Of a stretch of DNA of 64,000 bases, positions 53,815-57,868 are shown in pieces; positions within the stretch are counted from its first letter, which is position 1; each line of letters opens with the position of its first letter. The stretch is from Candidatus Latescibacterota bacterium (GTDB lineage: Bacteria > Latescibacterota > UBA2968), in NCBI GenBank assembly GCA_965198115.1, contig OZ240241.1, positions 2,816,001 to 2,880,000 on the forward strand. Direction: 5' to 3'. The notes beneath the pieces were generated by a model that was not told the DNA's origin, made no database searches, and worked only from the letters and a program-made list of their open reading frames with translations. The translations under genes and the position numbers were made by a program.

Positions 53815-54327
53815 TCAGCCTTCGGTGCCTCCATCGCCCTGGTCTTGCAACTCACCAGCTTCCAAGATTCTGCCACGTTCCTGATAATTTGAAACGAGCT
53901 CTTCGATCGTGCTGTGGAGCGTGCATCCGGAATGGTCCTCGGAACCGCTCTCCTTCTCGAATGCCACGAATAGTGCTCCGAAATCCGGGCTGGTGATGTC
54001 ATACACCAGGATCGGGTTATACCGGCTGTCACGTATCGCCCTTCTGTAATACTCATCTCTGAACAAACGGAACTCGGCAGGCCTCGGCTCCTCGTCACCC
54101 ATCAGTTCCAAGTATCTTTCGGATTCGATCTTGGAGCGAATGTAGCCAGGAACGAAGAATTCAGGACGAGGAGCGTCGAGAAAATAGAGGGTCTGAACGA
54201 GTCCACCGTCCCCATCGCTACGGGGTCCGAATCCGATGCGCGCCAGCGCAGTCAGTCCGACGTCCGGGTCGATCTCCTTCTCGTGCTGCTCGAAAAACAG
54301 CTCATAGATGTCCGGGGGTTGATTCAT
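53815..54327 (-). CDS. Acidic hypothetical protein (170 aa)
   Basis: Open frame with protein-like composition; hairpin at 53704-53731 downstream. Confidence 0.55.
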   Translation of the reverse strand: MNQPPDIYELFFEQHEKEIDPDVGLTALARIGFGPRSDGDGGLVQTLYFLDAPRPEFFVPGYIRSKIESERYLELMGDEEPRPAEFRLFRDEYYRRAIRDSRYNPILVYDITSPDFGALFVAFEKESGSEDHSGCTLHSTIEELVSNYQERGRILEAGELQDQGDGGTEG

Positions 54328-56533: not shown

Positions 56534-56570
56534 AAAGAAAAACCCCATCAGATCGTGGTCTGACGGGGCC
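56534..56570 (-). terminator. Attenuator terminator immediately upstream of the tRNA array
   Basis: CCCCGTCAGA-CCACGA-TCTGATGGGG followed by TTTTTCTTT. Confidence 0.85.
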
Positions 56571-56620
56571 TCGGTGATTCTGCTTCTGCGATTGGTTCTA
56601 CGTCACCGTTACCCCGCCAG
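56560..56620 (-). promoter_or_regulatory. Antiterminator helix
   Basis: CTGGCGGGG (56620-56612) pairs with CCCCGTCAG (56568-56560); inner helix CGGTGA/TCACCG. Confidence 0.75.
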
Positions 56621-56738
56621 TCGAGTCTTGTGTGCCATCCAGGGCATACATAAGCGTCCACGCGGATTCAAAGGTCGCGTCGCCGCAATGGACCTGCCCG
56701 GATTTGCGTAGTGACGATATGGGAAACGATGATCTCAT
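56598..56738 (-). CDS. Putative leader peptide (46 aa) of the tRNA-array attenuator
   Basis: MRSSFPISSLRKSGQVHCGDATFESAWTLMYALDGTQDSTGGVTVT; last codons form the 5' strand of the antiterminator; RBS is weak. Confidence 0.6.
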   Translation of the reverse strand: MRSSFPISSLRKSGQVHCGDATFESAWTLMYALDGTQDSTGGVTVT

Positions 56739-57238: not shown

Positions 57239-57868
57239 ATGTGCTTTCAAGCTGTCAAATGGCTCAAGAAACACCCTCTCGCAACGGTGACGCCCACTGG
57301 ATCGCTCCCCTCGCTCACAACGGCCGTGACTGGCGAGAACGTCAGGGGCAGCTGGTGGAGTCACCCGAAAGCGCACGACATCTACGCCGCCTGCCAGGCC
57401 CTGGATCGAAGCCCTTTCGTTCTCACCACCAAGTTGGTCAACCCCAAGGTCACCTTCATTCATCGTCGGATCTGGGGAGAGCTCTTGCGTGTGACCCTCG
57501 ATCGCGAGTGGGAAAGGGCCACGACCGTCGGCCTCGATCCCGCCACGAGAAGGATGCTCAGAAAAGTCAAGACTCTGGGTTGCGTTCGCTGGAACGACCT
57601 GACCGAGAGATCGCGAACAGACAGAAAGGTACTGCTCCAACGTCGACAAGCAGTCATCGAGAGGGGACTCGTTATCACGAGCCAAATGCACACCGAATCT
57701 GGCCGCCATACCGCTTTACTACAGTCCTGGCAGAACTTCTCCGAAGAGACAGCATCGCGACCCCATACAACCCTCGCCCTCTCCGAGGCGCTCGAACGGA
57801 TGAGAACCTGGGCGAAAGGTTGTGCGTTGACGATCGATGCTTTTTCCCGTGGGGGTGAAGCAGAGTAG
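57239..57868 (+). CDS. Hypothetical protein (GSWWSHP motif), possibly winged-helix
   Basis: Protein-like 209-codon ORF; start codon uncertain. Confidence 0.6.
   Translation: MCFQAVKWLKKHPLATVTPTGSLPSLTTAVTGENVRGSWWSHPKAHDIYAACQALDRSPFVLTTKLVNPKVTFIHRRIWGELLRVTLDREWERATTVGLDPATRRMLRKVKTLGCVRWNDLTERSRTDRKVLLQRRQAVIERGLVITSQMHTESGRHTALLQSWQNFSEETASRPHTTLALSEALERMRTWAKGCALTIDAFSRGGEAE

Follow-up and report, generated by a model that had tools for sequence, protein, structure and literature searches.

The tRNA array on the minus strand of the 64,000-nt stretch analysed here (the window), taken from a Candidatus Latescibacterota bacterium (the source genome, G000), is probably controlled by a ribosome-coupled, whiB7-like attenuator that would turn on a redundant set of tRNAs when decoding stalls, judging from sequence features and folding models. 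All parts of the element are read on the minus strand. A leader open reading frame (ORF) of 46 codons plus TAG extends from the ATG at 56738 to the stop codon at 56600-56598 and contains an internal in-frame ATG at 56651. The intrinsic terminator that follows (56568-56534) is composed of a 10-bp core stem (arms 56568-56559 and 56552-56543), a 6-nt loop, and a U-tract (56542-56534), and the first base of tRNA-Gln is 56531, 2 nt further on. Leader codons 40-43 (56620-56612) form the 5' arm of an antiterminator, which pairs with the 5' arm of the terminator (56568-56560). The stop codon is enclosed by an inner helix (56608-56603 with 56577-56572). Ribosome-mediated attenuators are characterized by this arrangement, in which the end of a short ORF extends into an antiterminator whose formation precludes that of an intrinsic terminator. 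This anatomy, including the 19 amino acids and 33 codons of the ORF, both antiterminator helices, and the 2-nt distance to tRNA-Gln, had been described in a first-pass annotation and was recovered in full when the minus strand was re-read. A 17-codon ORF from the ATG at 56651 was rejected as the sole leader because the similarity in this frame to the homologous leader of a second genome (G052) reaches further upstream; the other two frames of the leader contain stops in both genomes. The stretch is present in one piece, with a leader free of variants, in contigs of three sequencing runs that may represent the source sample.

The array downstream of this leader (56531-54558) comprises 21 called tRNA genes that cover 17 amino acids, together with a Val-like remnant and a shortened Leu-UAA, and it closes with a second called terminator (54525-54483). 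ARAGORN reports 20 tRNAs, or 21 including tRNA-Trp at a lowered score. Of the 22 tRNAs counted in the first-pass annotation, 20-21 are called genes, the 22nd being the Leu-UAA (about 56076-56009) that is shortened and not called by ARAGORN. The degenerate remnant lies at 55112-55044 and is assigned to Val by its position relative to the G052 array and by reading of the sequence. With 20-21 genes in 1974 nt, the array qualifies as a tRNA array unit, for which the part of PMC4758250 consulted requires 20 or more tRNA genes and a density of at least 2 per kb. Each of the 21 called anticodons has another copy elsewhere in the G000 genome, and the set can therefore be regarded as spare, as had been proposed. 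The array also displays the supernumerary, patchy, and foreign character of L-arrays (duplicates for 21/21 anticodons, occurrence in 2/168 genomes of the phylum, location in an IS-rich region), and 19 of its 21 tRNAs are closer to the G052 array than to the copies belonging to G000 itself. The surrounding IS-dense stretch (window 43446-64000 and G000:C1 2905800-2907324) is bordered by tRNA-Leu(CAG) on one side and by a tyrosine integrase beside tRNA-Val(UAC) on the other, and a near-identical integrase adjoins a second tRNA-Val at 7290888 in G000. The flanking ORFs (53815-54327, minus strand, 170 aa; 57239-57868, plus strand, 209 aa) have no convincing Pfam match, the nearest ORFs have no HNH or RtcB Pfam match, and RtcB lies far from the arrays of both genomes. 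Within the array, Leu-CAG and Leu-GAG (55267-55113, 56003-55932) measure 77 nt, whereas their housekeeping counterparts measure 87 nt, and the short D arm of tRNA-Trp is unusual.

G052, a genome of the same order as G000 and of another family, is the only one found to carry a homologous array. Its 31 sense-strand tRNA calls are colinear with the G000 array and likewise begin with Gln-UUG, and orthologous tRNAs share an average identity of 75%. The start, the frame, the offset of the stop codon, and both helices (in part of their pairs) are kept in G052, consistent in this one homolog with the conservation expected of the proposed element. The G052 leader ORF has 51 codons with the same start and frame and uses 20/20 amino acids (P 0.005-0.044) and 41 different codons (P at most 0.007). 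The two leader peptides share 19 identical columns including the start, and their local alignment score of 47 was matched by one of 5000 shuffles. Of 45 sites at each codon position, 23, 25, and 17 are identical at the first, second, and third position, respectively, and 9 changes are synonymous, a weak signal obtained from a protein-guided alignment. Spacing is closely maintained, with 20 nt from arm to stop in both genomes and 32 nt (G000) versus 31 nt (G052) from stop to terminator, and the terminator stems are near-identical. In a hand-set register, 8/10 pairs of the outer helix hold in G052 (one as a change from G-U to A-U) and 2/10 break, while 3/6 pairs of the inner helix hold (two double changes and one change to G-U) and 3/6 break. 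MAFFT does not reproduce this register, and a second possible antiterminator arm occurs 18 nt upstream in G052; the partial, hand-registered covariation is therefore only suggestive, and it amounts to one pair of sequences because the leader is present in only 2/168 genomes of the phylum. A purine-rich spacer between tRNA-Gln and tRNA-Lys, including the first bases of tRNA-Lys (56457-56381, minus strand), is kept in G052 (the L030 counterpart) and is possibly a processing or antitermination site. One or the other copy may be a relic, given that an IS200 element lies between the terminator and the first tRNA in G052 and that the array of G000 shows partial decay.

Wider searches identified no further homolog. 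A DNA search of 101 relatives and all 168 genomes of the phylum found the array in G052 alone, and a profile of the leader peptide run against the same 168 genomes recovered only its two input sequences (next best E 0.017). An Ile-UAU pattern matched in 3/168 genomes, one of the matches not being a tRNA, and a tRNA-Gln pattern matched at six viral and three genome loci, among which only the G052 locus is homologous. Among viral contigs, none of 147 candidates found with the back-translated peptide is related, and two additional viral patterns gave no locus and one unrelated locus, respectively. The head of the array has no match in plasmids, phage matches are limited to short tRNA stretches, and in the phylum of L037 (401 genomes) there were 18 matches of one or two tRNAs each and no array. 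In metagenomes (28/64 parts), the terminator pattern was found at 120 loci (40 with short flanks) representing 94 distinct unrelated terminators, none of them with tRNAs downstream.

The G000 ORF uses 19/20 amino acids (no Asn), all of them present by codon 31, and 33 different codons. Taken alone, the amino-acid richness is marginal (P 0.03-0.12), and the codon diversity that the first-pass annotation had pointed out is at chance level (P 0.54 versus base shuffles; 0.05-0.12 versus genome ORFs). The suggested matching of leader codons to array anticodons is likewise at chance level, as exact cognate codons exist for 13/22 array anticodons compared with 11.7 in shuffles (P 0.35). The leader lacks Asn, yet the array holds tRNA-Asn, and the leader residues Ala, Pro, and Val have no called gene in the array. 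Neither Pfam (E <=1) nor a protein database search gave a match to the peptide, and the unnamed clusters returned by the ESM Atlas at 0.91-0.92 are uninformative. The cautions attached to the original proposal, a weak ribosome-binding site (RBS) and no clear promoter, are justified for G000: the RBS of both leaders falls in the weakest fifth (-2.9 and -3.0 kcal/mol), and no sigma70-type site was found upstream of the G000 leader. The G052 leader is preceded by a sigma70-type site (TTGACA-17-TATTTT) 84 nt before its ATG, a promoter shape also found before the tRNA genes belonging to G000 itself. Upstream of the G000 leader, a weak match to a shape that is presumably of ECF type, GGAACC-N17-GTCTAA (56814-56786, minus strand), is a candidate promoter; it has just four matches genome-wide, which is chance level, and an ECF regulon was rejected because these matches share no context. 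Operator-like repeats common to the G000 and G052 leaders were not found, and a tRNA-like fold in the leader was rejected by eye because it has no T arm.

Folding predicts a switch that depends on the position of the ribosome. In snapshot folding, the transcript was ended in the terminator loop and the RNA behind the ribosome was removed. Under these conditions the antiterminator of G000 has a probability of 1.0 with the P site up to codon 37-38 and of 0 thereafter, and the corresponding probability for G052 stays within 0.41-1.0 until codon 41-42, falls to 0.35 at 42-43, and is 0 beyond, the G052 values being noisy when the upstream RNA is left free. The Asn at codon 43 of G052 is borderline relative to this predicted switch point. 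Ribosome-free RNA forms the antiterminator with a probability of 1.0 (G000) or about 0.89 (G052). At full-length equilibrium the terminator is favored at every position in G052 and, with the upstream RNA removed, at most positions in G000; a kinetic trap is therefore needed, in which the antiterminator must form first for the array to be on, as is usual for attenuators. The proposed masking of the antiterminator by the ribosome is partly supported, its layout being conserved in one homolog, whereas the switch, which had been placed at the stop codon, is predicted at codon 37-38. In the proposed mechanism, transcription would start at an upstream promoter, and translation from the weak RBS would be coupled to RNA polymerase. 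Once a ribosome has reached codon 38-39, it is predicted to cover the antiterminator arm and leave the terminator free (off), while a ribosome held at codons 1-37, or the lack of one, is predicted to let the antiterminator form first (on). Fast translation would thereby lead to termination, and a stall or a failed initiation would lead to read-through into the array; the signal would be uncharged or cleaved tRNA or ribosome antibiotics. The additional tRNA would relieve the stall and close a feedback loop. The near-complete set of amino acids would make the leader a general sensor, responding to slowed decoding of almost any amino acid, and the models make it likely that the spare tRNAs are made only during ribosome stalling.

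Three other explanations were considered for this arrangement. The leader could be an independent small gene or RNA followed by an ordinary terminator, which insulates a silent or separately read array and whose alternative helix is a coincidence. This is improbable, even though G000 has no clear promoter or RBS, its array is partly decayed, and upstream pairing at P >=0.85 is seen in 19/94 of the unrelated metagenomic terminators and 98/243 of the strong terminators of the G000 genome. Against coincidence, the upstream duplex competing with the terminator ranks 1/243 among those strong terminators and is stronger than in any of the 94 unrelated terminators that share this stem, and both the helix and the offsets are kept in G052; with a second measure and a looser set, the terminator ranks 25/1214 overall and 1/57 among those with a short ORF. 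The terminator is also detected by a separate terminator call and the antiterminator is the minimum free energy (MFE) fold, while the whole 236-nt leader is unremarkable in stability (z -1.2). Further points against it are that the U-tract and tRNA-Gln are just 2 nt apart, with no promoter-like site found there, and that the leader peptide lacks a Pfam match at E <=1. A switch that works without the ribosome (a riboswitch, a T-box-like RNA, or boxA/Nus-type antitermination) is less probable still. It would fit the formation of the antiterminator by free RNA, and the U-tract region (56542-56531) holds a TTCTTTG core like motifs of the G000 rRNA operon that are presumably of boxA type; full matches of this type lie downstream of the terminators of two phage loci, L259 and L213, and none occurs in G052 or in the phage locus L238. 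Such a switch does not account for the conserved reading frame, the boxA core is absent from G052, and the helix, inspected by eye, has no UGGN, the bulge motif of T-boxes. Identity with a T-box or known riboswitch was rejected for lack of an Rfam model match, the best leader matches (E 0.76 in G000, 1.4 in G052) covering only the terminator and lying far below gathering scores.

The same RNA switch could also be operated by a sequence-specific arrest peptide that responds to certain antibiotics or metabolites, in which case the richness of the leader would be incidental. Attenuators of this kind are common, the peptides of both genomes contain two identical residue clusters (H17-C18-x-D20-A-T-F and L29-M-Y-A32), and the richness of the G000 leader is marginal by itself. 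Other points argue for sampling of amino acids rather than for a fixed arrest sequence: the G052 leader contains 20/20 amino acids and 41 codons, all eight of the single-copy amino acids of the G000 leader are found in that of G052, several of them elsewhere in the peptide, and the leaders of the phage analogues described below are also rich without detected similarity (best E 0.19; L238 is outside that set). An arrest peptide is accordingly considered unlikely, if somewhat less so than the two explanations above, and ribosome-coupled attenuation with a general leader is retained as the preferred reading.

The type of switch is known; what would be new is its target (tRNA genes) and its feedback logic. 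In the trpL, hisL, ilv, and thr leaders, the ORF terminates within a helix that is the rival of a terminator, and the default state is off. The G000 ORF also ends in a terminator-competing helix, but it has no run of a single control codon, its 19 amino acids are spread out in a near-uniform sampling, and its target is a set of tRNA genes. A closer likeness, not named in the first-pass annotation, is to the whiB7/wblC uORF of mycobacteria and Streptomyces, described in the sections consulted of PMC10274678 as a long, amino-acid-diverse uORF that controls an antiterminator and a Rho-independent terminator, and in which stalling caused by antibiotics, starvation, or tRNA knockdown leads to read-through. 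Both systems oppose an antiterminator to a terminator behind an amino-acid-diverse leader, and the M. smegmatis uORF, like that of G000, uses 19/20 amino acids (same sections of PMC10274678). The G000 system differs in its output, which is non-coding tRNA and not a transcription factor, in the absence of Ala enrichment, and in the phylum. By analogy, the G000 leader would work like the whiB7/wblC leader without being a member of that family, as it precedes tRNA-Gln and contains Ala at only 3/46 codons. The array itself, long, redundant, and apparently foreign, resembles L-arrays such as the Anabaena trn operon, which is silent and induced by translation stress according to the main text of PMC8421152. 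Control in Anabaena is exerted by TrcR, a repressor that acts at repeats in the promoter (main text of PMC10272220), whereas a leader attenuator is proposed for G000, and RtcB is beside neither the G000 nor the G052 array. The terms 'attenuat' and 'leader' have no occurrence in the main texts of these two papers, a term search of an attenuator survey returned no mention of tRNA genes or operons (PMC2965389), and the portions consulted of a paper on phage tRNAs and immunity discuss promoter strength and no leader (PMC11555353). An attenuator on tRNA genes did not appear in the full-text literature searched, which consisted of listings and the beginnings of abstracts, with few subscription papers and without supplements.

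Comparable leaders may exist in phages. In three of 84 viral loci, the stop codon is followed at 27-31 nt by a terminator, and a competing helix is present: L238 (20 amino acids in 51 codons, 310 nt to the first tRNA), L213 (18 amino acids in 32 codons, 616 nt to the first tRNA), and L259 (19 amino acids in 35 codons, situated where a linear contig ends). The richness of each is marginal alone (P 0.03-0.065), and relatives of L238 were sought and no further ones found. When 91 loci (288 terminators) were scanned less strictly, five candidates came up for inspection, from which these three were kept and two (L246, L233) dropped; the phage analogues were thus picked after the fact. With a fixed rule (ORF, antiterminator, and at least 18 amino acids) applied to 85 loci, the element was found at 2/19 tRNA-proximal terminators (G052, L213) compared with 2/110 others (both L259), and L238 was missed. 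Most arrays examined have no such leader, including two plasmid arrays (L279, L280), and a first head-of-cluster filter, which was too narrow, detected none at the 75 of 78 loci having a cluster. It is slightly more likely than not that a self-contained feedback sensor has been gained several times by mobile tRNA arrays, in bacteria as well as in phages, in the form of a mini-gene under selection to sample all amino acids, through which translation speed gates the spare tRNA set. If true, the sensor would read tRNA damage or shortage directly, without a host regulator, making it portable with the array across phyla, and G000 and G052 would be its cellular members. A predicted upstream antiterminator is also seen in a family of metagenomic terminators (L048, L147, L158).

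The questions of why many bacteria and phages have silent, redundant tRNA arrays and of how these become active have so far been answered, in the texts cited above, for Anabaena, where a repressor is responsible. A leader attenuator would give a direct and portable answer, in that the ribosome would gauge how much tRNA is available and induce the synthesis of more. With its length of about 210 nt, the element is short, so that a reporter test is feasible despite the uncultured host, and it could serve as a general sensor of translation stress or tRNA cleavage. Attenuation seems to be a mechanism available to this cell, since classic-looking leader attenuators occur elsewhere in G000, their downstream genes being named by reading of the sequence: a 30-codon ORF containing Val, Ile, and Leu precedes an acetolactate-synthase-like gene (G000:C1 about 8017641, minus strand), and a 30-codon ORF rich in Phe, Tyr, and Trp precedes a TrpE-like gene (about 5579369, minus strand). 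At about 4339581 (G000:C1, plus strand), a Thr-rich ORF of 30 codons is accompanied by a terminator and a competing helix and now has IS-like sequence downstream. Finally, a second tRNA-Ile(UAU) is located after a 227-aa ORF (G000:C1 5955046-5956317, minus strand), and upstream of this ORF are a 46-codon ORF that uses 15 amino acids and a terminator for which a competing helix exists.
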